A DNA stretch of 11,231 nucleotides from Thermodesulfobacteriota bacterium. GTDB taxonomy: Bacteria; Desulfobacterota_D; UBA1144; Nemesobacterales; N074bin48. Made by a program: the position numbers and the translations under genes. A model generated the notes under the pieces. That model worked only from the letters and a program-made list of their open reading frames with translations, did not search any database and was not told the origin of the DNA. How positions within the stretch are numbered: the stretch's first letter is position 1; each line of letters starts with the position of its first letter. Positions 1-11,231 of the stretch are shown one piece after another. Location: positions 1-11,231 of the forward strand of contig JBFFSH010000083.1 in assembly GCA_041572575.1 (NCBI GenBank). The letters run 5' to 3'.

Positions 1-141
1 GTAAGGAGGGTTTTAATATGCCTAGTCATTTAAATGTCCCCACGAAATATTGGGAACTCACAAAGGAGGTTCCACCTCCTCCTATAGAGAGAGACATAAA
101 ATCCTGGATTATTGCTAATCCATCAGATCCACTATGGGATA
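1..141. repeat. Terminal direct repeat, copy 1 (circularisation overlap)
   Basis: Identical to 11091-11231 (GTAAGGAGGG...ACTATGGGATA), 141 bp. Confidence 0.97.
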
Positions 142-995
142 TCGATGTTCTTCCTCTCACATATACAGACAGCCGTTGGTCAGCTTTTGTTGTCAGGGTT
201 GATGAGCCTACAAGAAGGCGTCTAGTACCTGATCCACCTCTCGATCTATGGGATGGAGAAAACGCAGACTTAGTTGAATACTGGTATGTAGACCACAAGA
301 ACACAATGCTTGGTCCATATCTCGAATTTGGTGTAACAGTTTCAACCAGCTATAAAGATCCTAAAGGTAATGTGTGGAGAGCTGGTTATTATCCATATAT
401 GTATCTTACTGGTGATGCACCAGTAGATGCTGGTCGTGTACTCGGATTTCCAAAGAAAATGTCATATATCAGATGCACAGTTCACGGTGGAGAAAAAGGA
501 ACCGACTTTTTTGGCTTTGCAATGTCCCGTAACGGATATTTACTACACAGTGCTACAGGTCAGTTCGACGATAAGCAGGTAACCCCTCCATATTTCTATG
601 GAAAGACCGATTGGGGTAAATTTAACATGAAGGTTATCACAAGACCAGACGTATCTAGCTCCGAATGGCAGCTAACATACCTACCTTCAGAGCTTCCTGG
701 TGCTATGAAGGAAATGATTCAGGGTCACCGTTTTAAAATTAAACCTGAACATACCCGTACAGCTTCTGGCGATGCTATTAACTGGTTTGCTCAGGCAACA
801 CCTTTTGATAACATGGGTGCAGAGATCAAGATTCAGGAAGTTACAGGTCTTATTTCATTTGTATTTGATCTAGTTATTCCTCCAGCAGTTGTTCTTTGGA
901 CAGAGACATATGAGCGTCCAGCCAGCTATAGAGGATATGCAACACCATACAAGTATGGACTACGTCAGCAGTTCCCAATCAGTCAGGGATCATAA
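18..995 (+). CDS. Acetoacetate decarboxylase-like superfamily protein (paralogue 1)
   Basis: 325 aa ORF with RBS AAGGAGG at 3-9. Contains the family motifs GPYLEFG and GRVLGFPKK (Schiff-base Lys), plus an N-terminal extension. Confidence 0.85.
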   Translation: MPSHLNVPTKYWELTKEVPPPPIERDIKSWIIANPSDPLWDIDVLPLTYTDSRWSAFVVRVDEPTRRRLVPDPPLDLWDGENADLVEYWYVDHKNTMLGPYLEFGVTVSTSYKDPKGNVWRAGYYPYMYLTGDAPVDAGRVLGFPKKMSYIRCTVHGGEKGTDFFGFAMSRNGYLLHSATGQFDDKQVTPPYFYGKTDWGKFNMKVITRPDVSSSEWQLTYLPSELPGAMKEMIQGHRFKIKPEHTRTASGDAINWFAQATPFDNMGAEIKIQEVTGLISFVFDLVIPPAVVLWTETYERPASYRGYATPYKYGLRQQFPISQGS

Positions 996-1052
996 TAGTA
1001 GTTTCTTGTATAAACATAAATATCGAAAAAAAAGATTCAGGAGGTTATAACA

Positions 1053-2024
1053 ATGGGTTTACATGCTAATGAATATAGTTATCCATGGTTGGCAGAAGGT
1101 GAAGTTCCACCTCTACCAATGGATAGAGACAGAATACACATCATAAGTCAGGGTGTTATCGACCCAGTATTTGACTATGATATTATTCCATTGACTTATA
1201 CAGAAAGCCGCTGGATGGCATATTGTATCAGAGCTGATATAAATGCTATGAAAGCTATCGTTCCAGAACCAATCGAAGTACAAGACGATGTAATCGAGTT
1301 CTGGTATGTAATTCACAGAAACACAATGCTTGGACCATACATGGAATTTGGTGTAACTTTTTCAGCTACAGTAGATGATGGTTCAGGACATATTTACAAA
1401 GCTGGTTATTATCCATATATGTATCTCTCAAATGACTCACCAATCTTTGCAGGTAAAGAGCCATTTGGATTTCCAAAGAAAGCAGCTTATATCGCTGGTT
1501 TCGAGCATGGAACAAACAATAACTACTTCAACCATCTAATGGAACGTCGTGGTTATATACTACATACAGCGAATGGTCGCTATTCAGACAAACCACTTTC
1601 AGTTAAACCTACATTTTATGGCAAAACTGACTGGGGTAGAATGAACTATCGTATTACCACAAGACCAGATGTATCAAATAGTATCCATGAAGTAACATAT
1701 CTCCCATCTGAGCTGCCTCCAGGATTTGGAACAGGACATAGATTCCAGTTAGATCCTCAGAGTATCCGTACAGCTACAGGCGATGATATTCGTTCTTGGT
1801 ACATGTCAGGTACTCCATTTGACTTCATGGGTGGTCAGATACCTGCAACAGAGATTGTTGGTCTTATCAGTTTTACATTTAACTTGATCATTCCACCAGC
1901 TGCTACAATCTGGACAAGAACTGTAGAAAGAGGCGAAGCAGATTTCGGACAGATTCTATATTCAAAACCATTTGAATATACAATGCGTCATCGTTTCTTA
2001 CTACCACAGTACAGCCAGGCTTAA
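1053..2024 (+). CDS. Acetoacetate decarboxylase-like superfamily protein (paralogue 2)
   Basis: 323 aa ORF with RBS AGGAGG upstream. Motifs GPYMEFG and GKEPFGFPKK. Shares NTMLGPY, AGYYPYMYL, FYGKTDWG, TRPDVS and TYLPSELP with paralogue 1. Confidence 0.85.
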   Translation: MGLHANEYSYPWLAEGEVPPLPMDRDRIHIISQGVIDPVFDYDIIPLTYTESRWMAYCIRADINAMKAIVPEPIEVQDDVIEFWYVIHRNTMLGPYMEFGVTFSATVDDGSGHIYKAGYYPYMYLSNDSPIFAGKEPFGFPKKAAYIAGFEHGTNNNYFNHLMERRGYILHTANGRYSDKPLSVKPTFYGKTDWGRMNYRITTRPDVSNSIHEVTYLPSELPPGFGTGHRFQLDPQSIRTATGDDIRSWYMSGTPFDFMGGQIPATEIVGLISFTFNLIIPPAATIWTRTVERGEADFGQILYSKPFEYTMRHRFLLPQYSQA

Positions 2025-2040
2025 TTAATTGAAAACAACG

Positions 2041-2071
2041 GATAGAAGCACTAATAGTGCTTCTATCTTTT
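2041..2071 (+). terminator. Rho-independent terminator of the adc-like pair
   Basis: GATAGAAGCACT-AAT-AGTGCTTCTATC, a perfect 12-bp stem followed by TTTT, 16 nt after the stop codon. Confidence 0.85.
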
Positions 2072-2115
2072 AATTATTTGTCTGGATAGTAATTAAAACA
2101 GGTAGTTAAAAAATT

Positions 2116-2153
2116 AACCCCATTAGAACTATATAGCTCTAATGGGGTTTTTT
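2116..2153 (+). terminator. Second terminator-like hairpin
   Basis: AACCCCATTAGA-N10-TCTAATGGGGTT followed by a T run and preceded by an A run. Confidence 0.75.
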
Positions 2154-2284
2154 ATTGGTAAATACTAATTTCTATGTGCTAACCTCTTATCAACTCAATA
2201 AACAGCGTTAAAATAGCTTAAAATGAATCATTTGATATAGTTTTATATTATTTCTATCATATCGCGAACACAAGGAGTACATAT

Positions 2285-2497
2285 ATGAAAGTTGTAAGTC
2301 CAGCAGGGGATTTTGAGATAACAATAGAGGATTCTTCAGTAGAACAGGATTCTATTGTGTTAAAAGGGCAAATGGGGGTATGGGATTCCAAGATTTACCT
2401 AAAGCCAAGCGACCTATTTATATTCGCATCGATGTTAATAAGACCTGCTATTATAGTATTTTTATTAAAATATCCGTTTAAACAGATCTTTAAATAA
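2285..2497 (+). CDS. Small hypothetical protein with a hydrophobic C-terminal segment
   Basis: 70 aa ORF with RBS AAGGAG at 2272-2277. Fills the intergenic gap and is followed by a terminator. Confidence 0.7.
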   Translation: MKVVSPAGDFEITIEDSSVEQDSIVLKGQMGVWDSKIYLKPSDLFIFASMLIRPAIIVFLLKYPFKQIFK

Positions 2498-2544
2498 AGG
2501 GGTGTTTTAAGTATAGGTCAAACAATAAATCTTTAATAGGAATA

Positions 2545-2573
2545 AAAAAAGGGGCATATAATGCCCCTTTTTT
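2545..2573. terminator. Bidirectional terminator between convergent genes
   Basis: AAAAAAGGGGCAT-ATA-ATGCCCCTTTTTT. Confidence 0.85.
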
Positions 2574-2617
2574 GGTTAAAACTTATATAAAAATAGTTTG
2601 ATATTATAAACTATATA

Positions 2618-3142
2618 TTATCCTGGTACTCCACCAAGTGGATTCCATTTTTCTGTGAGTAACAACATTCCTGGAATAAGAAGTGTTACTATGGACTCTA
2701 TAAGGAATAAATAAGCAACAAGTGTTGCTGTTCCTTTTCCTAGAGCAAGTGCTGTCCAAGCAAAGAAAACTAAAACAGCCCATGCAACAGAGAAACCAGC
2801 CATATAGTTAAGCCCTAATGAGCTGAAATGTGATGCGTACCATAGAAATACTATAGTAGCGAATAGGCAATACCAGCCTAAACCCTTACCATCGTGGCCG
2901 TGAATGAAAATTCCGGCTACCATAAAATAAATCAGTGCAAATACAGATACTAAAGCGGTAGCGGCTGTTAAACCGAGACCATGTAGCTGCCATGCAGCTA
3001 TTGAAATAATAATACCTACGCCAAGGTTTAATACACCAATCTCCTTAGCACCGGTTTTACCAAGAAGGGTCATCCCGTTTCCAAAGAAAACGAACCCTAC
3101 CAATAATAACACTAAACCAAGTAAAGCCTCTACAGGAACCAT
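2618..3142 (-). CDS. AmiS/UreI family membrane channel (urea or short-chain amide)
   Basis: 174 aa with about six hydrophobic helices. Family-like segments include LGLVLLLVGFVFFGNG, DGKGLGWYCLF, WAVL and TLLIPG. GGAG RBS upstream. Confidence 0.85.
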   Translation of the reverse strand: MVPVEALLGLVLLLVGFVFFGNGMTLLGKTGAKEIGVLNLGVGIIISIAAWQLHGLGLTAATALVSVFALIYFMVAGIFIHGHDGKGLGWYCLFATIVFLWYASHFSSLGLNYMAGFSVAWAVLVFFAWTALALGKGTATLVAYLFLIESIVTLLIPGMLLLTEKWNPLGGVPG

Positions 3143-3229
3143 ATCTCTCCATACCTCCTTTATTTATTTTCTTATGGTTTATAAGAGTTGTATGGTCACA
3201 AAAAGATACACTATAACCATTACTAGTAG

Positions 3230-3259
3230 CTTTTAGCACATTTCATATATAAATGTCAA
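3230..3259 (-). promoter_or_regulatory. Candidate sigma70 promoter of the AmiS/UreI gene
   Basis: Minus strand TTGACA (3259-3254), 18 bp spacer ending in TGC, then TAAAAG (imperfect extended -10). Confidence 0.4.
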
Positions 3260-3328
3260 GATGTTTTTTACTGTATATAGGAATTTGGGGTTGGAAAAAT
3301 TAAACTTAGTTTATATAAACAATGGAAG

Positions 3329-3365
3329 AAGTAACCAAGGAGTTCTAAAAGCTCCTTGGTTACTT
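3329..3365 (-). terminator. Hairpin terminator after the thiolase-DUF35-MaoC operon
   Basis: AAGTAACCAAGGAG (3329-3342) and CTCCTTGGTTACTT (3352-3365) form a perfect 14-bp inverted repeat just past the MaoC stop. Confidence 0.8.
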
Positions 3366-3380
3366 TAAAATATATAGTTT

Positions 3381-3833
3381 TTAAGATGATTCTTTTCTAT
3401 TTACCAAAATTACCCACTTACCTTTCTGTACTACTTCGTCTTTTTGGTTATGTACATTAACTTCAAAGATAAAAAATCCCATATTGGGGCGTTTATGTTC
3501 CCTCTTTTCTACTAATTTGCGCGTTATATGGATAGTATCTCCTGGGAATACGGCACCTGAGAAACGCCAGTCTTCGAGTCCCATAAAGGCCACTGTTGCA
3601 AGCCTTGGCATTGTAAACCAAAGACCAGTTGCAATAGAAGTTACCAGCATTCCATGGGCTACACGAGTTTTAAATACTGTCTTTTTAGCAAACTCTTCAT
3701 CTATGTGCATGTTATTATAATCTGCAGAAAGGCCCGCAAAATTAACAACATCTGCTTCGGTAACTGTTCTGCCGGAGCTTTTATGCTCAGCATCTACTTC
3801 TAAATCTTCATATAGAATACGATCTTGCGCCAT
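3381..3833 (-). CDS. MaoC-like (hot-dog fold) enoyl-CoA hydratase/dehydratase
   Basis: Motif FAGLSADYNNMHIDEEFAK...AHGML, with the catalytic Asp/His retained. Start moved from 3851 to the ATG at 3833 because RBS AAGGAG lies at 3848-3843 (150 aa). Confidence 0.88.
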   Translation of the reverse strand: MAQDRILYEDLEVDAEHKSSGRTVTEADVVNFAGLSADYNNMHIDEEFAKKTVFKTRVAHGMLVTSIATGLWFTMPRLATVAFMGLEDWRFSGAVFPGDTIHITRKLVEKREHKRPNMGFFIFEVNVHNQKDEVVQKGKWVILVNRKESS

Positions 3834-3858
3834 TACAATTATCTCCTTCAAGTATTAG

Positions 3859-4278
3859 TTATGCAGCAGGTTTAAACTTTGGAAGTGTAACTTCATCTGT
3901 TACATCATCAAATACAACCTCTACATCCATTCCCATATGAACATCGTTAGGATCACAATCAACTATATTTGTCATCATTTTTACACCTTCTTCTGTTTCA
4001 ACCAGTGCAACTACATATGGTCCATCACCTTTATAAGCCTTTGTTGGGCCCATATGATGAATTGAAAATGTCCAAACCTTTGCTTTTCCGCTTGCTTTAC
4101 TCCATTCTACCTCTGCCATATCATCTCCTGGAGAAAAAGCCCTGGGGTAGAAAAAGAATTTGTTAGTTTCTTTTGATTTTGGGAGCATTAATTCATGGTT
4201 TTTACATGCATCCCAAAAAGGTTTAGTTTCGGGTCGAAACTCTGGAAGTGGTTTATTGTATTTATTTTCTTCTGACAT
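3859..4278 (-). CDS. DUF35 (Zn-ribbon/OB-fold, acyl-CoA-binding) protein
   Basis: ETKPFWDA...FFYPR...SGKAKVWTFS...PYVVALVETEEG.KMMTNIV...GMDVEVVF. Lies directly downstream of the thiolase-fold gene, with AGGAGG RBS. Confidence 0.9.
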   Translation of the reverse strand: MSEENKYNKPLPEFRPETKPFWDACKNHELMLPKSKETNKFFFYPRAFSPGDDMAEVEWSKASGKAKVWTFSIHHMGPTKAYKGDGPYVVALVETEEGVKMMTNIVDCDPNDVHMGMDVEVVFDDVTDEVTLPKFKPAA

Positions 4279-4299
4279 ATTTAATTTCCTCCTAAATGA

Positions 4300-5511
4300 T
4301 TAAGAAAGCGCTTGGTTTCCAAGCAGTATGGTGCTGTGAGCAGAAACAATTCCTCCGTTTCCATGAACAAGGGCAACTTCGGCATTATCAACCTGTCTTG
4401 GTCCTGCCTCACCTCTAAGTTGTAGTGTAGCTTCTATTACGTGGTGCATCCCTCCTAAATGAGCTTGTGACAGTAGCCCTCCATTTGTATTCACAGGCAT
4501 ATCTTTTCCAATTTCCATGCGGCCTTCTAGTGCGAATGGTCCTGCTTCACCCTTACCAACAAACCCGAGACCTTCCATCTCTAGGGCAACTGTTATGGTA
4601 AAACAGTCATAAAGATATGCCAGGTTTATATCTTTTGGACCTATTCCCGCTGTATCGTATGCTTTCTTCCCAGATCTTTCTACTGCATTGTATATCTGGT
4701 CTAAATCTTGTAGTGTAGTTAGATACTGATGTGAATAGCCCTGTCCCATACCCCATAGGTATGCAAGTGGTTTTTCTATTCCAAGCTGTTTTGCTTTTTC
4801 TTCCGTTGTAACTATAAAAGCAGCACCACCATCGGAAATAATTGAACAATCATATTTGTGTAATGGTTCTGCGATAACCCTGGAGCTAAGAACATCATCT
4901 ATAGTAAGAGGCTCTTTATTCATAGCATTTTCTTTCAAAGCTGCATGCTTACGCATTGTTACTGCAATAGCTGCCAGGTGCTCTGAGGTTGCTCCATACT
5001 CATGCAGATACCTCTGTGCAGCAAGTGCATAACCACCTGGTGTTGTAAGTCCATATGGATACTCAAACTCTGCATGGCACATCTCTCTAATAAGCGCCAC
5101 CATACCGGAGGATGATATTCCTGAGAGTGTATTATCTCCTCTCACACAAAGCACAGCCTCGGCCTGTCCGGTAGCGATAGCCATAGCAGCCTCTGCTGCC
5201 ATCCACACTGCCGTAGAACCACCAATTGCTATAGATGAAAAGAATTTGGGGTTTAGTCCAAAATAATCTGCAAATGTAGTACAGTGCATGAATGTATGTT
5301 CAACAAGTGAAAATGCTGTTACTAGTCCGTCTACATCGGTCTTTTTAATTCCTGCATCTTCTATTGCAAGCTTTGATGCTTCGGAGAGGAAGTGAAATGA
5401 GCTTTTATTAGGGATCTTGCCCTGTTCGGTCTCACCTACTCCTGCAATAACGATTTTATTTTTTTTAAGTATTTCTCTGGCATCTTTAATGCCCGGGATT
5501 GTACTTGCCAT
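4300..5511 (-). CDS. Thiolase-superfamily protein, SCP-x/Ltp2-like (probable acyl-CoA aldolase)
   Basis: 403 aa with IAGVGET, DCSIISDGGAAFIVT, LYDCFT, VNTNGGLLSQAH and QLRGEAGPRQV. The nucleophile position reads IGGST, with no Cys. Confidence 0.88.
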   Translation of the reverse strand: MASTIPGIKDAREILKKNKIVIAGVGETEQGKIPNKSSFHFLSEASKLAIEDAGIKKTDVDGLVTAFSLVEHTFMHCTTFADYFGLNPKFFSSIAIGGSTAVWMAAEAAMAIATGQAEAVLCVRGDNTLSGISSSGMVALIREMCHAEFEYPYGLTTPGGYALAAQRYLHEYGATSEHLAAIAVTMRKHAALKENAMNKEPLTIDDVLSSRVIAEPLHKYDCSIISDGGAAFIVTTEEKAKQLGIEKPLAYLWGMGQGYSHQYLTTLQDLDQIYNAVERSGKKAYDTAGIGPKDINLAYLYDCFTITVALEMEGLGFVGKGEAGPFALEGRMEIGKDMPVNTNGGLLSQAHLGGMHHVIEATLQLRGEAGPRQVDNAEVALVHGNGGIVSAHSTILLGNQALS

Positions 5512-5557
5512 TACTACTACCCCCTTATCATATAGGATTTAATTTTCAAAGGCTCTT

Positions 5558-5585
5558 ATATTAAATTGACCTTTACAAAAGTCAA
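5558..5585 (-). promoter_or_regulatory. Candidate promoter with overlapping palindromic operator
   Basis: Minus strand TTGACT-16 bp-TAATAT. The inverted repeat TTGACCTTT-AC-AAAAGTCAA (5566-5585) covers the -35 element. Confidence 0.45.
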
Positions 5586-5655
5586 CCTTATCAGCTACTT
5601 AAGACACAATTGTATAAATTATACTTTTTGATGCATTCTAAAACAATACGAAGCT

Positions 5656-6798
5656 CTATATACCAAGTTCTCTTGAGATAACTATCCTCTGAACCTCTGA
5701 TGTGCCTTCAGTTAAAGATGCAAGCTTGGCGTCTCTATAATACCTCTCTACAGGGTACTCCACTCCATAACCATAACCCCCTAAAACCTGTACAGCCTCT
5801 GTAGCCACTTCCTGTACCACTTCTGCCGCGTAAAGCTTAGCCATGGATGCTTCTTTTATGCATTTTTTATCATTACTGTAAAGCCATGCAGCCTTATACA
5901 CCATAAGCCTAGCAGACTCTACCTTTACAGCCATATCTGCTAGTTTAAAGCTTATAGCCTGAAACTTGGAAATTGGTCTTCCAAACGCTTCTCTTTCTTT
6001 TGAATACTGCAGAGCATAATCAAGTGCCGCCTGAGCTATTCCCACCGATTTAGCAGCGTGAGTGATTCTTGCTCCAAGGAGAGTTCCCATAGCTCCACCA
6101 AATCCTCCTTGTCCTACCAAAAGATTCTCTTCGGGAACTTCACAGTTTTCAAATATTAGTTCTCCAGTGTCTGCAGCCTTATGGCCCAATTTATGTATTT
6201 TTGCCCCCACTTGGAAACCTGGCGAGTCCTTATCCACTATAAAAAGGCTTATACCCTCTCCTTTTTTTGTTTTATCTGTATATGCTGCCACTATTGCATA
6301 ATCACACATATTTCCATTAGTAATCCAGGTCTTTGTACCATTTAATATGTACTTGTCTCCCTCTTTTACAGCCTGTGTGCGTATACTTCTTGCATCAGAA
6401 CCTGCATTTGGCTCTGTAAGCCCCAAGGATCCTATGATCTTTCCCTCTATGCCTGGAATAAGATATTTTTCTTTTTGTGCATCTGTACCAAATTTATATA
6501 TTGGGAACATTGAAAGCCCAACATGTGCATTAATACACATGGTCATACCGGCATTTACCTTTCCCATTTCTTCAGAGAATATGCAGTCAGTAATCTTATC
6601 CATTCCTACTCCACCATACTCTTCTGGAAACACTATCCCCAAAAACCCCATTTCCCCCAACTTGGGAAATAGTTCTTTTGGAAAATCCTCTTTAGCTTCA
6701 TATTCTTCTATAAGAGGCTCCACCTCATTTGCAGCAAAATCCCTAATAGTATCCCTGAACATCTCTTGTTCTTCTGTAAATTCAAAATTGAGTGACAC
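5656..6798 (-). CDS. Acyl-CoA dehydrogenase
   Basis: 380 aa, GTG start with AGGAGG RBS. Motifs LTEPNAGSD, LNGTKTWITNG, REAFGRPI..FQ, QVLGGYGY and LTEGTSEVQR (catalytic Glu). Confidence 0.96.
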   Translation of the reverse strand: MSLNFEFTEEQEMFRDTIRDFAANEVEPLIEEYEAKEDFPKELFPKLGEMGFLGIVFPEEYGGVGMDKITDCIFSEEMGKVNAGMTMCINAHVGLSMFPIYKFGTDAQKEKYLIPGIEGKIIGSLGLTEPNAGSDARSIRTQAVKEGDKYILNGTKTWITNGNMCDYAIVAAYTDKTKKGEGISLFIVDKDSPGFQVGAKIHKLGHKAADTGELIFENCEVPEENLLVGQGGFGGAMGTLLGARITHAAKSVGIAQAALDYALQYSKEREAFGRPISKFQAISFKLADMAVKVESARLMVYKAAWLYSNDKKCIKEASMAKLYAAEVVQEVATEAVQVLGGYGYGVEYPVERYYRDAKLASLTEGTSEVQRIVISRELGI

Positions 6799-6940
6799 GG
6801 TTGTCCTCCTATTGTAATAAAGATTTAATTTGGCGGCTTGATTATATCACGTTTGTATAGACTGTGTAAATAGTACAGAAAATGTTATATAGTACCGTAT
6901 TTCGTAAATTCCGAGAAGTATATATAATTAAGCTGTATAT

Positions 6941-6968
6941 AATACCGTCTTTATACAAATATGGTATT
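6941..6968. other. Candidate tyrosine-recombinase crossover (resolution) site
   Basis: AATACCGTCTT-TATACA-AATATGGTATT: 11-bp inverted arms (9/11 match) around a 6-bp spacer, 15 bp upstream of the recombinase start. Confidence 0.5.
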
Positions 6969-6983
6969 CTTCAGTGAAAACCT

Positions 6984-7559
6984 ATGGCACAAAATTTACC
7001 GGAAACATTAAACTATCAAGAAAGGGAATTGCTACTTTCTCAGCCAAACCAAAAAGCCCCTACTGGCCTGAGAGATCTTGCCATGATAAGACTTATGATA
7101 AATGCTGGTCTGCGTTCTTGTGAAGTATTAAAAATGTTTATTGAAGATATAGACTGGATAAGTGGAAAACTTCACATAAAACAGGGAAAAGGTAAGAAGG
7201 ATAGAATAATATGGGTTAATGAAGAGGATTTAAACGTAATAAAAAAATGGAAAGAAATAAAGCCTAAAAGTCCTGTTTTGTTTACCACATTAAAAGGAGG
7301 ATGTATAAATGACAGATATTTGAGGGCTATGGTAAAAAGAAGAGCGCAAAATGCTGGAATCACTAAAAACGTGCACCCTCACTTACTGCGCCATACATTT
7401 GCAACCGATCTTTTAAGGTCTACAAAAAATATAAGGCTTGTTCAAAAAGCCCTTGGGCATGCAAACCTGTCATCGACCATGATTTATACCCATGTGTATG
7501 ATGAAGAGCTTGAAAGCGCATTAAAATCATTTAGGAATAGTAATTACCGCGGTAGTTAG
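6984..7559 (+). CDS. Tyrosine recombinase, catalytic domain only (probable plasmid resolvase)
   Basis: 191 aa with the full catalytic set: GLR (R), GKGKK (K), HLLRH (HxxR), LGH (H) and TMIYTH (Y). No N-terminal core-binding domain. Confidence 0.93.
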   Translation: MAQNLPETLNYQERELLLSQPNQKAPTGLRDLAMIRLMINAGLRSCEVLKMFIEDIDWISGKLHIKQGKGKKDRIIWVNEEDLNVIKKWKEIKPKSPVLFTTLKGGCINDRYLRAMVKRRAQNAGITKNVHPHLLRHTFATDLLRSTKNIRLVQKALGHANLSSTMIYTHVYDEELESALKSFRNSNYRGS

Positions 7560-7578
7560 TGCGGTAGCTACCTCGGTA
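7545..7578. repeat. Array of three 10-bp palindromes, 12-bp period (parS-like site 1)
   Basis: TACCGCGGTA (7545), TAGTGCGGTA (7557), TACCTCGGTA (7569). Confidence 0.8.
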
Positions 7579-8191
7579 ATATATGCTTGCTAGCCCAATC
7601 TATTTGTACTCCGTGCTCCAACCTCTCCTTAACCACTTCAGATGATTCTGGTAAAAAGTACTGTCTACCATACACCCCTTGGGAAGGCTTTGTGATAACA
7701 ATACTTTTCTTATGTTCCAATGATTTGATAGCAACCCTTATTGTTTTGTCAGAAAGGCCTGTGAGTTCGCGTATTCTTGTAATACCTATTCTGACCTCCT
7801 GAGAACCGCTTTTTATCAATTCGCTTTTTATAGCATTATAGATTTTATTTTCGGAATTTGTATGTGTAGCACTTAGACTATTTTGCTCTATGGGCTTTGT
7901 GGTTATATTTTTGTTAGTTACCGCGGTATCTACCTTAGTATGTACTGCAGTAGTTACCGCACTATCTACCGCGGTAGGATGTTTGGTAACCCCTTGTATA
8001 TGTTCGCTTAATTGTGGTTTATCTATATTTCGCTCTGACCTAAAAGAGCTGAAATATTTCGTAGCTACCTTATGTGTGGTAAGTGGATCAGACCGTTTGT
8101 TCATGGACTCAATCATCCCATCCAGGCGGCCCTTTTTCTTCTGTTTATTAGAGGCTTCTACTGAGGTATTGTCTTCCTTCTTTTTGCTCAT
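7568..8191 (-). CDS. ParA partner protein with C-terminal winged HTH (candidate centromere-binding protein)
   Basis: 207 aa, overlapping the parA 3' end by 44 nt. Basic N-terminal KKKGRLDGMI, a low-complexity linker, and HTH-like IGITRIRELTGLSDKTIRVAIKSLEHKKSI followed by a wing. Confidence 0.7.
   Translation of the reverse strand: MSKKKEDNTSVEASNKQKKKGRLDGMIESMNKRSDPLTTHKVATKYFSSFRSERNIDKPQLSEHIQGVTKHPTAVDSAVTTAVHTKVDTAVTNKNITTKPIEQNSLSATHTNSENKIYNAIKSELIKSGSQEVRIGITRIRELTGLSDKTIRVAIKSLEHKKSIVITKPSQGVYGRQYFLPESSEVVKERLEHGVQIDWASKHILPR
7919..7976. repeat. Array of five 10-bp palindromes, 12-bp period (parS-like site 2), inside the wHTH gene
   Basis: TACCGCGGTA (7919), TACCTTAGTA (7931), TACTGCAGTA (7943), TACCGCACTA (7955), TACCGCGGTA (7967). 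Confidence 0.85.
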
Positions 8192-8954
8192 CCTGATATA
8201 TCCTTATTATCTCTTTTGCTACTCTTCTGTAGTCCATAGCGCCCGAGCACAGGGGGTCGTACTCTAAAATATGTTTGCCAAAACCACTAGCTTCTTTAAG
8301 CCTTACATTGTTGTGTATGGCAGGGAGCGTCTGTGGCCCGAATTTTTTTTCAATTGCATCGATTACCGTTTTGCTTACATTTGTAAGTTTGTCATGCATA
8401 GTGGGAAGCCCATATGGAACTATCGGATAATCTGTCCTGGATGAATATATTTCATATAGCGTTTCATCTATCATTTTTACAGCATCAAGGGCCATTGGCT
8501 GTGTCTGTATTGTGATTATCACATCGTCCGCTGCAAAAAATGCGTTTATAGTAAGTGTTGCAAGGGAAGGTGGGCAATCGATTATAACAAAATCTGTTTT
8601 ATGTTTAACTTTATTTAATGATTTCTGCAATTTATGATCTTTTTCTATCAAAGAAGACATACTTAGATCTGCTCTGCTCATAGATAGGTTTGCCGGTATA
8701 AAACTTATTCCATCATCCCTTTTAATTATCACATTGTTTATATCAATACTGCCTCTTGTATCCAACAGCACGTCGTTTATGGTAAGCTCAAAATCATTTG
8801 GGTTATATCCCAAGTGCGAAGTAGCGTTTCCCTGGGGATCTAAATCCACAAGGAGCACTCTTTGTTCTTTTTCCGCTAGACACGCTGCCAAGTTCACGGC
8901 TGTCGTTGTCTTCCCTACACCCCCTTTGTGGTTTGCTATGGCTAATATTTTCAT
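8148..8954 (-). CDS. parA: ParA/Soj family partition ATPase
   Basis: Deviant Walker A KGGVGKTT, A' VDLDPQGNAT, Walker B IIDCPP. No N-terminal HTH. AAGGGGG RBS. Confidence 0.95.
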   Translation of the reverse strand: MKILAIANHKGGVGKTTTAVNLAACLAEKEQRVLLVDLDPQGNATSHLGYNPNDFELTINDVLLDTRGSIDINNVIIKRDDGISFIPANLSMSRADLSMSSLIEKDHKLQKSLNKVKHKTDFVIIDCPPSLATLTINAFFAADDVIITIQTQPMALDAVKMIDETLYEIYSSRTDYPIVPYGLPTMHDKLTNVSKTVIDAIEKKFGPQTLPAIHNNVRLKEASGFGKHILEYDPLCSGAMDYRRVAKEIIRIYQDEQKEGRQYLSRSL

Positions 8955-8974
8955 GCTTCCCCCTTCGTTTTTTC

Positions 8975-9889
8975 TTAGCTGCCTTCTGCCTTTAGATAGA
9001 TATTATCTATAACCATATCGCAAAGCATTTCTACAAAAAATTTTCTGGCTTTTTCTGACTCGTTTGGTAATTCGTCGTAAGGAAAATCTGTTTTTACTAG
9101 ATTTGCTATCGAGTCGATATCAATTTCCGGATTTTCCTCCGATAACTCAGTCATTCTGTTTACCATTATTTCTTTAATTGTCTTATAAGCTCCTTCCTCT
9201 ACCACATCCTCTAGCGGTTTTACCCCGTTCAAATTGTCATATATTTCGTATAATCGGGTTTTAAAAATGCCATTTTTTAAATTTGTATGCACCTTTTTTT
9301 CGTTTTTATGCGTTTTTACACTATAGGTTCTTTTATTTATTTGTGTCTTATTTATATATGAGTATTCTTTGGGTGACATTTTTGTCACCCCCCCCCGTGA
9401 TAATTTTGTCACCCCCCCCGTGACATTTTTGTCACCCCCCCCCATGACAATTCTGTCATCCCCCTTAGAATCCAAGTCTTCTGTATCTTTGTCGGTTATT
9501 TCTTCATTATAATCTGCTCTCAGCATCTCTTCTGTGAGTTTCTTTACCAGGGGTCTAAAATCAAAAATTGTTGTTATCTGAGCCCCTGTATGCTCGTTAA
9601 AACGCGGTTCTTTTATAAGCAGATGAAGTTCTTCTAAGTCCTGGGTGATTCTTTTTATGCTTCTTTCTTCAACTCCAGCCCTTTTTGCAAGTGTGGAGTA
9701 GCTTGGAAACGGACTGTATCTATCCCACTTAAAAGACATGATATCTATTATAAGTGTTAAGTGTTTTGGTTTAATTCCGAGGGCAGAACGGTAGCGAAGT
9801 AAGAGGTTTGGGACGCTAGTAAAGCCTTCGTCAAGTATATCGCCCCATATTTGTACTATTCTGGTTTTATCTTGTTTGTTTGTAGGCAA
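8975..9889 (-). CDS. Replication initiator protein with N-terminal HTH (phage/plasmid replisome-organiser type)
   Basis: 304 aa, TTG start with GGAAGG RBS. GFTSVPNLLL...FPSYSTLAKRAGVEERSIKRITQDLEE HTH. Central Gly/Thr/Lys linker is encoded by DNA iterons. First gene of the operon containing parA. Confidence 0.8.
   Translation of the reverse strand: MPTNKQDKTRIVQIWGDILDEGFTSVPNLLLRYRSALGIKPKHLTLIIDIMSFKWDRYSPFPSYSTLAKRAGVEERSIKRITQDLEELHLLIKEPRFNEHTGAQITTIFDFRPLVKKLTEEMLRADYNEEITDKDTEDLDSKGDDRIVMGGGDKNVTGGVTKLSRGGVTKMSPKEYSYINKTQINKRTYSVKTHKNEKKVHTNLKNGIFKTRLYEIYDNLNGVKPLEDVVEEGAYKTIKEIMVNRMTELSEENPEIDIDSIANLVKTDFPYDELPNESEKARKFFVEMLCDMVIDNIYLKAEGS
9270..9370. other. AT-rich tract beside the iterons (candidate DNA unwinding element)
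   Basis: Strand-biased T-rich sequence (TTTTTTAAATTTG...TTTTATTTATTTG...TATTTATATATG) immediately flanking the iterons. Confidence 0.5.
9373..9464. repeat. Four palindromic iterons with C-tract spacers (putative oriV)
   Basis: GTGACATTTTTGTCAC (9373), GTGATAATTTTGTCAC (9397), GTGACATTTTTGTCAC (9420), ATGACAATTCTGTCAT (9444). Periods are 24, 23 and 24 bp. Confidence 0.88.
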
Positions 9890-9927
9890 ATTTACCTTCC
9901 TAAATTTATCTTAAATAAATTAAGGTC

Positions 9928-9957
9928 TTGACATTGCTTTTTATGGGAAGGTATCAT
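9928..9957 (+). promoter_or_regulatory. Sigma70 promoter of the antisense RNA
   Basis: TTGACA (9928-9933), 18 bp spacer, TATCAT (9952-9957). Fires opposite to rep, within the rep leader. Confidence 0.7.
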
Positions 9958-9963
9958 TTAGAT

Positions 9964-10024
9964 GTTCCACCTTCCGGTTGCCGCCGTTGTTTTTGTTTTC
10001 TCCACAAACATCGGCGGCTTTCTT
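9964..10024 (+). ncRNA. Putative ~60-nt counter-transcribed RNA (ctRNA) against the rep leader
   Basis: Bounded by the promoter above and the terminator hairpin GCCGCCG (9980-9986) / CGGCGGC (10012-10018) plus TTTCTT. Ends are approximate. Confidence 0.65.
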
Positions 10025-10030
10025 ATATTT

Positions 10031-10059
10031 ATTATATTATAATTACCGATTTAAATCAA
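10031..10059 (-). promoter_or_regulatory. Promoter of the rep-parA-wHTH operon
   Basis: Minus strand TTGATT (10059-10054), 17 bp spacer, TATAAT (10036-10031). Predicts a leader of about 135 nt. Confidence 0.65.
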
Positions 10060-10118
10060 AGATTGATATATAACACTAGAGCAATTAATAATACAAAAAA
10101 CTTTTCTGAGAACAACCA

Positions 10119-10898
10119 ATGGACAGAAATGAAAAATTGGCAAGAGATTTTTTAGATCTAATACAAAATTGCAAACATGCTGTAGCGCTAACAGGTGCTG
10201 GTATAAGCACGGAGTCCGGAATACCAGATTACCGTTCACCGGATACGGGCCTTTGGGAAAATACCGATATGTCTGTGGTTTCTCTAGATGGTTTTTTAGC
10301 AGACCCTTCAAAATATTACAAATACTCACTTAAGCTTTATCCGGTAAGAAGCGCTGCAAAGCCAAATCCTGCGCATTATCTTCTAGCCTCGTTAGAAAAA
10401 CTCGGATTTTTAAAAGGTGTTATTACGCAGAATGTAGATGGTTTGCATTACAAAGCCGGTTCTGAAACCGTTCATGAACTTCACGGATCTCTTAGGCAGA
10501 CAGTCTGTCTTGGCTGCAACTTGTTGTTTCCCATGGAAGAAATTATGCAAAGGGTAGTTTCTGGGGAAAATCCGCCGTACTGTCAGGAGTGTGGAGCTGT
10601 TTTGAAGCCAAACGCCATATTTTTTGGTGAAGCTCTACCGCAAATACCTTGGAAAGAATCAGTTAAGCTTTGTGAAAACGCTGACTTGTTCATTGTAATA
10701 GGCTCATCACTACAAGTCTCACCCGCAAATATACTACCTGATATGACTATCAAAAAAGGCGCAAAACTTGTTATATGCAATATTCAGGCTACCCCTTTTG
10801 ATACAGATGCAACGCTTATTGTTCGGGAAAAGATAGGTGGGTTTGCTTCCTTAGTGGCGAGCTTGTTGGAAAGTAATATCACTGATACTGAAAGCTAG
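10119..10898 (+). CDS. cobB: NAD-dependent protein deacylase, Sir2/CobB family
   Basis: GAGISTESGIPDYRS, ITQNVDGLH, ELHGS, CxxC...CxxC zinc site, LKPNAIFFGE and GSSLQVSPA. Confidence 0.93.
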   Translation: MDRNEKLARDFLDLIQNCKHAVALTGAGISTESGIPDYRSPDTGLWENTDMSVVSLDGFLADPSKYYKYSLKLYPVRSAAKPNPAHYLLASLEKLGFLKGVITQNVDGLHYKAGSETVHELHGSLRQTVCLGCNLLFPMEEIMQRVVSGENPPYCQECGAVLKPNAIFFGEALPQIPWKESVKLCENADLFIVIGSSLQVSPANILPDMTIKKGAKLVICNIQATPFDTDATLIVREKIGGFASLVASLLESNITDTES

Positions 10899-10974
10899 AT
10901 AAGCCAATATAGCACTTATTTTTTGCATTTTAAGGCTTTTACTTAAACTTTTTTTGAATATATGAAAAAAGTAC

Positions 10975-11004
10975 TTGACAAAGGGCTTGTAATTTTGATA
11001 TAAC
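10975..11004 (+). promoter_or_regulatory. Sigma70 promoter of the adc-like pair
   Basis: TTGACA (10975-10980), 18 bp spacer, extended -10 TGaTATAAC (10996-11004). About 100 nt upstream of the ATG at 11108 (= position 18). Confidence 0.65.
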
Positions 11005-11090
11005 AATGTCGTTGGGGTATAGAAACGCGCGGTTTGCGTGCATTCGATGCTCAGCGGGGATTTTTTTAATCCTGTTTTAAAAAATATTTA

Positions 11091-11231
11091 GTAAGGAGGG
11101 TTTTAATATGCCTAGTCATTTAAATGTCCCCACGAAATATTGGGAACTCACAAAGGAGGTTCCACCTCCTCCTATAGAGAGAGACATAAAATCCTGGATT
11201 ATTGCTAATCCATCAGATCCACTATGGGATA
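11091..11231. repeat. Terminal direct repeat, copy 2 (redundant overlap with 1-141)
   Basis: Exact match to 1-141. Contains the RBS and first codons of the 18..995 gene. Confidence 0.97.

Follow-up and report, generated by a model that had tools for sequence, protein, structure and literature searches.

A winged-helix protein encoded after parA on a small circular plasmid as a candidate CTP-independent ParA adaptor related to replication initiators

The parA locus and its two phased arrays

The window analyzed here is the whole 11,231-nucleotide (nt) contig JBFFSH010000083.1 (C83) of the Thermodesulfobacteriota bacterium assembly GCA_041572575.1 (G000; 2,598,674 bases, 137 contigs), and our subject is a gene for a 207-amino-acid (aa) winged helix-turn-helix (wHTH) protein that directly follows parA, together with two arrays of short palindromes within it and at its end. 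The window is a whole 11,090-bp circle, a complete circular plasmid at positions 1..11090, with a 141-nt terminal repeat in which bases 11091-11231 equal bases 1-141. C83 is the sole contig with such a repeat among the 137 of its genome, and the junction from 11090 to 1 is joined in contigs from two of the four public runs with which we compared the window, three of which may be sources of its DNA. Besides rep, parA, and the wHTH gene, the plasmid carries genes for a tyrosine recombinase and a sirtuin as well as lipid-catabolism cargo, and its host belongs to the class that holds Candidatus Dadabacteria.

On the reverse strand, parA (8148..8954) encodes a 268-aa Walker-type ATPase of type Ib size (PF13614, E 3e-52; PHROG ParA-like, E 8e-63), with the Walker A motif KGGVGKTT at residues 10-17 and no N-terminal helix-turn-helix (HTH). 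The wHTH gene (7568..8191, reverse strand) overlaps the end of parA by 44 nt, as described in the original prediction made from the DNA alone, which had also read its KKKGRLDGMI segment and linker correctly. Its N-terminal 55 codons (8027..8191, reverse strand) encode a basic tail and two helices (residues 22-34 and 36-53) predicted in an AF2 model; this part is conserved in the family alignment, where R22, L23, and M26 are almost invariant in the near family. In the same model, residues 63-103 form a disordered linker and residues about 105-205 (7577..7879, reverse strand) form the expected C-terminal wHTH domain, with pLDDT mostly above 90 and a recognition helix starting at residue 147 (about 7712-7753, reverse strand). 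The protein had been judged to be neither a ParB CTPase nor a ribbon-helix-helix (RHH) protein, and our findings agree: its confident domain is the wHTH, there is no ParB_N domain (no PF02195 match at E 0.05 and no such domain in the model), and GxRR and GxxRxxA motifs are absent. Pfam and NCBIfam gave no family at cut-off, PHROG O-like families matched at E 4e-4 to 9e-4, and TIGR01610 stayed under its curated cut-off. A search of the open reading frame (ORF) list and a Pfam scan found no second ParB candidate on the complete circle.

Eight 10-bp units of the TAC-N4-GTA type lie at exact 12-bp spacing in two arrays, as first noted, with the refinement that three of the eight are exact copies of TACCGCGGTA, and the other five depart from it by one mismatch (one unit), two (three units), or three (one unit). 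Array 1 (7919..7976; units at 7919, 7931, 7943, 7955, and 7967) occupies the linker-coding region, and array 2 (7545..7578; units at 7545, 7557, and 7569) spans the two convergent stop codons. Together they flank the wHTH-coding part, about 340 bp apart, with units in either orientation, and the inverted variant reported as common to both arrays is present at 7955 and 7557. In its exact form, the motif is confined to the arrays, in line with the earlier observation on the window: the exact 10-mer has three copies in the genome, every one within the arrays, and the four further matches in the window at two mismatches (2002, 2951, 4645, and 8159) are unphased. The chance background for loose matches is high (mean 19.9 at three mismatches); the longest 12-bp-phased run at up to three mismatches is five units in C83 and one or two in each of the other 136 contigs. 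Both arrays are identical and gap-free in contigs of all four public runs compared.

Array 2 gives the wHTH gene its ending off-frame (another frame reads TEVATALTTAV), and in long relatives of the protein it stands in frame ahead of a C-terminal domain. In 70 of the 73 short homologues, the protein closes with IPR, LPR, or LLR, and this ending is an off-frame palindrome in both that have had their DNA examined. Homologue DNA of the short form was recovered from one relative only (L111), in which unit 2 of array 2 is non-coding and the recombinase homologue ends ahead of the array. On the window plasmid, the last codons of the convergent tyrosine recombinase gene (6984..7559, forward strand; 191 aa, catalytic domain only; PF00589, E 5e-39) extend into array 2.

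Comparison across loci supports the arrays as probable DNA-level sites rather than peptide repeats. In 22 loci of genome families f1 and f8 (38-54% GC), valine within the units is encoded by GTA in 152 of 153 cases, compared to 128 of 557 in a control made of parA and the wHTH, and the silent base before the unit's Thr, Ser, or Asn is T in 143 of 153 cases (control, 309 of 1307). The two arrays of a locus share 17.1 7-mers, compared to 5.8 for wHTH-coding DNA and 5.4 for other loci (36 loci). Among family representatives, the repeats fit best at a lag of 4 or 8 residues in 94 of 114 segments upstream and 80 of 100 segments downstream of the wHTH, and linker lengths fall into one modulo-4 class in 66 of the 73 short homologues, with units gained and lost in 4-aa steps. 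The 25 exact sites of five f8 genomes include 24 on the contig that carries the module (some are duplicates from contig overlap), and a reversed control gave five sites; the f2 motif is not rare genome-wide, where controls are similar, yet it is clustered on the module contig in G002, G004, and G012. Lone exact sites also occur outside the arrays on f8 replicons, in uvrC, an lhr-like gene, or parA (L002:10804, L005:2786, L007:3708, L008:4158, G071:C10:1754 and 22676, and G078:C2:21071), with almost none in the rest of these genomes, and these are possible auxiliary sites.

A family built like replication initiators and paired with two types of ATPase

Sequence searches returned 169 homologues and a profile search 232 clusters at 50% identity, with relatives in Ca. 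Dadabacteria and Thermodesulfobacteriota records and the nearest Atlas clusters mostly in Acidobacteriota. Within the class, 27 of 120 genomes carry the gene, among them 21 of the 33 f8 genomes and 5 of the 15 from f2. PLSDB (three queries) and IMG/VR (three scans) gave no match, so no cultured plasmid was found, and PDB sequence searches returned nothing useful. The top structural match of the model was 4ro3 (Z 8.4; root-mean-square deviation [rmsd] 2.9; 95 aligned), with LexA and pSK41 RepA (4pta) within 1 Z. Since 4ro3 is the N-terminal domain of PLE RepA, a RepA_N initiator in the accessible part of PMC7145576, the match may point to an initiator-type wHTH, though with such a tie we treat it as suggestive only. 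Foldseek gave no match at E 0.001, and TubR, AspA, and ParB are absent among the matches listed, which does not exclude them.

The architecture of longer relatives points the same way. Among 150 representatives, 59 have a DnaD-like C-terminal domain by our own profile and 35 another long C-domain; of the remainder, 35 end at most 25 residues past the wHTH (some probably cut by contig ends), 10 carry a tail of medium length, and 11 are incomplete sequences. The modeled C-domain of the long form (pLDDT 88) matched DnaD-like domains first (2zc2, with Z 6.5, rmsd 2.9, and 71 of 75 residues; 2i5u, with Z 5.7), and in long relatives PHROG DnaD-like families were matched weakly (E 6e-4 in 3 of 35). 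Weak matches to PHROG O-like and DnaD-like families were found in up to 8 of 62 family members each. As judged from sequences and models, the long form, with its N-tail, array 1, wHTH, array 2, and DnaD-like domain in this order, appears to be an initiator layout plus an extra front part. The window protein has no DnaD-like C-domain and ends at array 2; we read it as a cut-down member of a family with the build of replication initiators. In an f8 long-form gene (G093:C19:31179-32235), a frame change falls between the wHTH and array 2 and splits the gene, a parallel to the truncation in the window, and the G078 form has 245 aa and no C-domain. The 207-aa protein shows no significant similarity to the plasmid's own Rep, and we therefore rejected a recent duplication.

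In all 65 loci with enough upstream DNA, the family gene directly follows an ATPase gene, which encodes ParA in 47 and an ExeA-like AAA+ protein in 18. By source, the ATPase precedes the gene in 40 of 49 metagenome loci (22 ParA, 18 ExeA-like) and in 25 of 27 genome loci, with the other two cut by contig ends, and all 11 loci in which no ATPase was seen have at most 628 nt of sequence upstream of the domain. The second partner is an AAA_22 protein nearest TIGR03015 (E about 1e-44, under cut-off) with a weak Orc1/Cdc6 match, which we take to be ExeA-like; it is found at L089:5070-5891, L101:5162-5962, L110:3834-4709, and at 15 further loci, and a tyrosine recombinase is frequently close by. Sister wHTHs with different ATPases are well supported in the tree at both L098/L105 and L089/L100. 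A single clade of AAA-partnered wHTHs was rejected (p-AU 0.007) in a quick tree of 23 rows that left out L130, L134, and the f1/f8 rows, with the ExeA group named after the first tree was seen.

The N-terminal part of the protein follows the ATPase. The original prediction had likened its basic peptide to the LGRGL type; the peptide is present, but the likeness is loose, and the conserved part is the two-helix segment at residues 22-53, which changes with the ATPase. After removal of near-identical loci, which left 33 of 62 for the tree and the first correlations, similarity of the N-terminus correlated with that of the ATPase at r 0.82, compared to 0.19 with the wHTH. For residues 18-50 in 24 loci (residues 1-17, most f8 loci, and L134 dropped), r was 0.66 with the ATPase (0 of 5000 permutations) and 0.18 with the wHTH, and the nearest neighbor by N-terminus was that by ATPase in 16 of the 24 and that by wHTH in 5. 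A predicted complex of two ParA with partner residues 12-58, ATP, and Mg scored 0.01, which is uninformative, and we do not use it either way.

The arrays, on the other hand, appear to travel with the wHTH and to co-vary with its recognition helix. Helices that start SD[KR]T occur with TAC-N4-GTA, GDHT with GAC-N4-GTC, and [SA]KNT with TGA-N4-TCA, while SRNT, SHVT, STNT, SDNT, AENT, and AQQT each occur with another site word. The comparison of homologues proposed at the outset came out largely as anticipated, with internal arrays that co-vary with the helix and recur after the wHTH, albeit with much shared ancestry. At L116, the ParA is 76% identical to that of the window and the N-tail is window-like, yet the helix and array motif are different. 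Together, these patterns suggest that the module consists of two blocks, the ATPase with the N-tail and array 1-wHTH-array 2.

A candidate ParA adaptor and competing explanations

We propose that the 207-aa protein is probably a CTP-independent ParA adaptor that derives from an initiator and uses the old iterons as its centromere. Within a type-I (ParA) partition system, with no CTP needed, it would be the adaptor on the centromere and would bind the TAC-N4-GTA units of both arrays as wHTH dimers side by side in 12-bp steps. The array-bound dimers would give rise to a locally dense population of N-terminal tails, which would bind and stimulate nucleoid-bound ParA, by analogy with the arrayed centromeres of other type-I systems, and the plasmid would then be moved by a diffusion ratchet. 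The ancestor may have been an initiator of the phage-O/RepA_N/DnaD type that later gained an ATPase-binding N-terminus; array 2 would occupy the position where such initiators keep intragenic iterons, and the DnaD-like C-domain would have been lost by a frame change at array 2. Replication of the window plasmid would fall to a second Rep, which has 24-bp iterons of its own.

The comparative evidence supports the earlier view of the wHTH protein as the plasmid's ParA partner. Of the claim that it binds sites in its own gene, the sites themselves stand, as they are constrained at the DNA level and follow the wHTH, while the binding is something we infer. A sister circle, G001:C61 (15.3 kb), carries the same Rep (51% identity) and cargo with a different ParA (37%) and a 128-aa partner; Rep and recombinase are present, and there is no family gene and no array site. 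This type of Rep can therefore do without the wHTH protein, and another small partner can stand in the place behind parA, which we count in favor of the adaptor reading. ParB is encoded on another contig in five of five hosts tested, and the window ParA is 36% identical to the ParA homologue of contig C100, where the host parB also sits.

Several observations weigh against this proposal. The co-variation of helix and motif is largely confounded with ancestry, with few close contrasts (L089/L100 and L116), the inner four bases of the units differ among proteins of the same helix start, and the arrays of L130 carry unlike consensus units. The gene of L034 has no array 1, and two units 12 bp apart lie upstream of its operon. 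The 22 f1/f8 loci used for the silent sites are related genomes and not independent, the Z-scores of 8.4 and 6.5 are within the range reached by common folds, and the N-terminus overlaps and is linked to the ATPase gene, such that block exchange or linkage alone could give their co-variation. Finally, long relatives look like initiators, one of them being the sole initiator-like protein found on the circle G012:C9, and the family's main job elsewhere may be replication.

In a broader reading, which we consider possible but hold only tentatively, full-length members combine initiator and partition functions in one chain, with own-gene arrays, bound by the one wHTH, as both origin and centromere. 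The DnaD-like C-domain would start replication and the N-tail would engage the motor; the motor block, comprising the ATPase gene and the N-tail, would be exchangeable, with an ExeA/TnsC-like AAA+ protein in 18 of 40 informative metagenome loci. The window plasmid would represent the end of this path, where a partition-only adaptor was left once the second Rep took over. G012:C9 is a complete 61.5-kb circle with the long form; 45 of its 59 ORFs were scanned and contained no Rep or ParB family, the other 14 being ParA and, by eye, metabolic or regulatory genes, and the long protein is the only candidate found there for the replication and partition jobs. If this reading is true, the AAA+ partner would be a motor for segregation that belongs to none of the Walker-ParA, actin, and tubulin classes.

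It is also conceivable, though unlikely, that the window protein is still a replication factor, acting as a second or accessory initiator or a copy-number controller on iterons of its own; ParA would control it in the way that Soj regulates DnaA, and partition would not be its principal role. The matches of the wHTH to the PLE RepA N-terminal domain and RepA_N, the PHROG matches, and the DnaD-like C-domain in 59 of 150 representatives agree with such a role. Likewise, a query with the window-type Rep found none in G002, G003, G004, and G012, which carry the intact long form, and no Rep family was found in 70 of 156 neighboring ORFs scanned at 27 distant loci. On G002:C20 there is a second ParA, paired with a PrgO-like protein of 91 aa, so that the long protein there would be free to be an initiator only. 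The window form itself, on the other hand, lacks the C-domain and stands next to a separate Rep with its own iterons, and the same Rep type is found on a complete circle without the gene. Primase-type Reps lie upstream at two distant loci (DUF3854 at L103 and RepB_primase at L122), and the 35 representatives that end shortly past the wHTH, allowing for those that may be contig-cut, further argue against a replication role.

We regard as improbable a repressor role, in which the protein would curb rep-parA read-through and the convergent transcription of the recombinase gene, with the arrays as operators or roadblocks and ParA as an orphan or partner of a host protein. The position of array 2 at convergent gene ends would suit it, as would G012, where a pair of units at 12-bp spacing is found upstream of the operon and not in the linker. 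However, the arrays of the window lie 1-1.4 kb downstream of the parA start with no site near a predicted promoter, and a pure repressor would leave unexplained both an N-terminus that follows the ATPase and the ATPase adjacency at 65 of 65 informative loci. Highly improbable, in our view, is that the repeats reflect a low-complexity Thr/Ala/Val linker, or sites of the recombinase or Rep, and are unconnected with the wHTH. The linker is disordered in the model, its units are freely gained and lost, and tyrosine recombinases are near several distant loci, but the fixed silent positions, the reverse-complement units within arrays, and an array 2 that is kept off-frame or non-coding do not fit a peptide repeat. 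As for other binders, which the original prediction had named as an alternative, no recombinase homologue was found on the complete f8 circles with arrays (G071:C10 and G097:C22), and arrays are absent from G001:C61, which has both Rep and recombinase, so that neither is a likely binder.

The adaptor reading places the protein near several known systems. ParZ of Borrelia burgdorferi is encoded next to parA, controls ParA through an N-terminal peptide, and binds its own coding region, as described in the accessible part of PMC9712426, which reports a chromosomal system and defines no phased array there. It resembles the window protein in the gene next to parA, in having no CTPase role shown, and in own-gene binding, which is predicted here; it differs in that we see two 12-bp arrays and full-length initiator-like relatives, and the two are set apart by description, not by sequence. 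ParT of the Streptomyces plasmid SCP2 (ParATS) is CTP-independent with parS inside parT, and it is a truncated ParB with a ParB-like HTH and a C-terminal dimerization domain that slides from one 18-bp inverted repeat (accessible part of PMC12260392). It shares with the window protein the basic N-terminal peptide, sites inside the partner gene, and, as we propose here, CTP independence, whereas the window protein has a wHTH that may be of initiator type, ends just past it, and has arrays of 12-bp-phased 10-mers; no ParB-type row is among the structure matches listed, which leaves such a fold unexcluded. Since ParZ and ParT are already CTP-independent ParA partners with sites in their own genes, the idea that the locus represents a new partition principle does not hold.

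Type Ib systems (ParF/ParG and delta/omega) likewise have a short ParA without HTH, an arrayed centromere (predicted here), and a small downstream partner, but the adaptor here is a wHTH rather than an RHH protein, and the arrays lie inside and at the end of its gene. The N-terminal HTH extension of type Ia ParA is absent from the window ParA, with its 268 aa and Walker A at residue 10. In the TubRZC system, tubC lies upstream of its operon. TubR of pBtoxis, a wHTH protein, binds seven repeats of 12 bp that form two sets, according to the accessible parts of 10.1101/2022.04.29.490116 and PMC9178275, an arrangement like ours, but its motor is the GTPase TubZ, compared to ParA or AAA_22 here. 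The origins of lambda O and RepA_N replicons lie inside their initiator genes. Like RepA_N, phage O, and DnaD-like initiators (accessible part of PMC7145576), the family has a wHTH fold and semi-palindromic direct repeats that follow the wHTH within its gene, and long relatives also have a DnaD-like C-domain beyond these repeats; the family differs in the ATPase-tracking N-terminal segment, the extra upstream array, the fixed coupling to an upstream ATPase, and the absence of the C-domain in the window form.

Own-gene sites are already known from Borrelia ParZ and Streptomyces ParT; what is new here is the family, its probable initiator origin, its possible dual Rep/Par form, and the ParA/AAA+ swap. 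We found no description of the family in the literature searched, which did not extend to subscription papers and supplements (ParZ/ParT homologue tables), and it is not mentioned in the accessible parts of PMC5352709 and 10.1101/2024.09.03.610885. A large unnamed family would join the short list of CTP-independent ParA partners, and a route merely guessed for Borrelia ParZ, the joining of an ATPase-binding tail to a replication-type protein that binds its own gene, would become visible in sequence. Genes that contain their own probable sites offer ready pairs of helix and site with which a wHTH recognition code could be tested and orthogonal plasmid tools developed, and the ParA/AAA+ swap makes AAA+ DNA segregation testable.

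Related replicons and remaining features of the plasmid

In f8 genomes, the same rep, parA, and wHTH module lies on 20-33-kb contigs; two of these, G071:C10 and G097:C22, carry terminal repeats, and a 22.8-kb unit recurs within G078:C2. The 23-29-kb module replicons (G071:C10, G097:C22, G078:C2, and G087:C7; L039-L047) hold the only full-length uvrC found in four of four f8 genomes tested. The only uvrB found in G071 and G097 is also on the module replicon, while that of G078 is chromosomal, and lhr-like and nfo-like genes were recognized by eye on the f8 module replicons. These replicons look like very small chromids with DNA-repair genes, which the module may maintain; in G000, uvrC and uvrB lie on contigs other than C83. 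Sister replicons also carry other ParA cassettes, composed of a small HTH_17 gene, ParA, and a 128-132-aa partner (L144:9781-11137 on G001:C61, L143:3399-4767, and L137:6642-7687). For the 128-aa partner of G001, the nearest named cluster is PF18064 at 0.86, which we treat as a lead only.

The separate Rep of the window plasmid (8975..9889, reverse strand), encoded 20 nt upstream of parA, has an HTH_36/DnaD_N-like wHTH (PF13730, E 1e-9; PF21984, E 2e-7) and matches PHROG replication-initiation families. Inside rep lie four 24-bp iteron-like repeats (9373..9464) with poly-C spacers, unrelated to the 12-bp arrays. Their motif was found in five of six relative contigs scanned, with no match listed for G001:C61, and they are the probable plasmid origin. 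An Rfam scan gave no match, and promoter-like sites are at chance level (12 compared to 11.0). Contigs of RNA runs span the wHTH gene, although such contigs cannot show transcription.

The cargo (18-6798 and 10119-10898) comprises two ADC-family genes, an AmiS/UreI transporter, a MaoC dehydratase, a ChsH2 OB-fold protein, a thiolase, an acyl-CoA dehydrogenase, and the sirtuin. These genes are 62-92% identical across the class, on replicons with differing rep/par modules, and the ADC, AmiS, MaoC, and OB-fold genes have no further copy in G000. A near-unchanged stretch lies by the acyl-CoA dehydrogenase or recombinase gene in three genomes (L137:10073-10264, L144:9120-9500, and L143:2677-3057); in place of the ORF called there, it may represent a small gene or a structured RNA. 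All four public runs read G at window position 2808, where the window has T, outside the region of interest. Behind the second ADC gene lies a terminator-like 24-bp inverted repeat (2109-2156).

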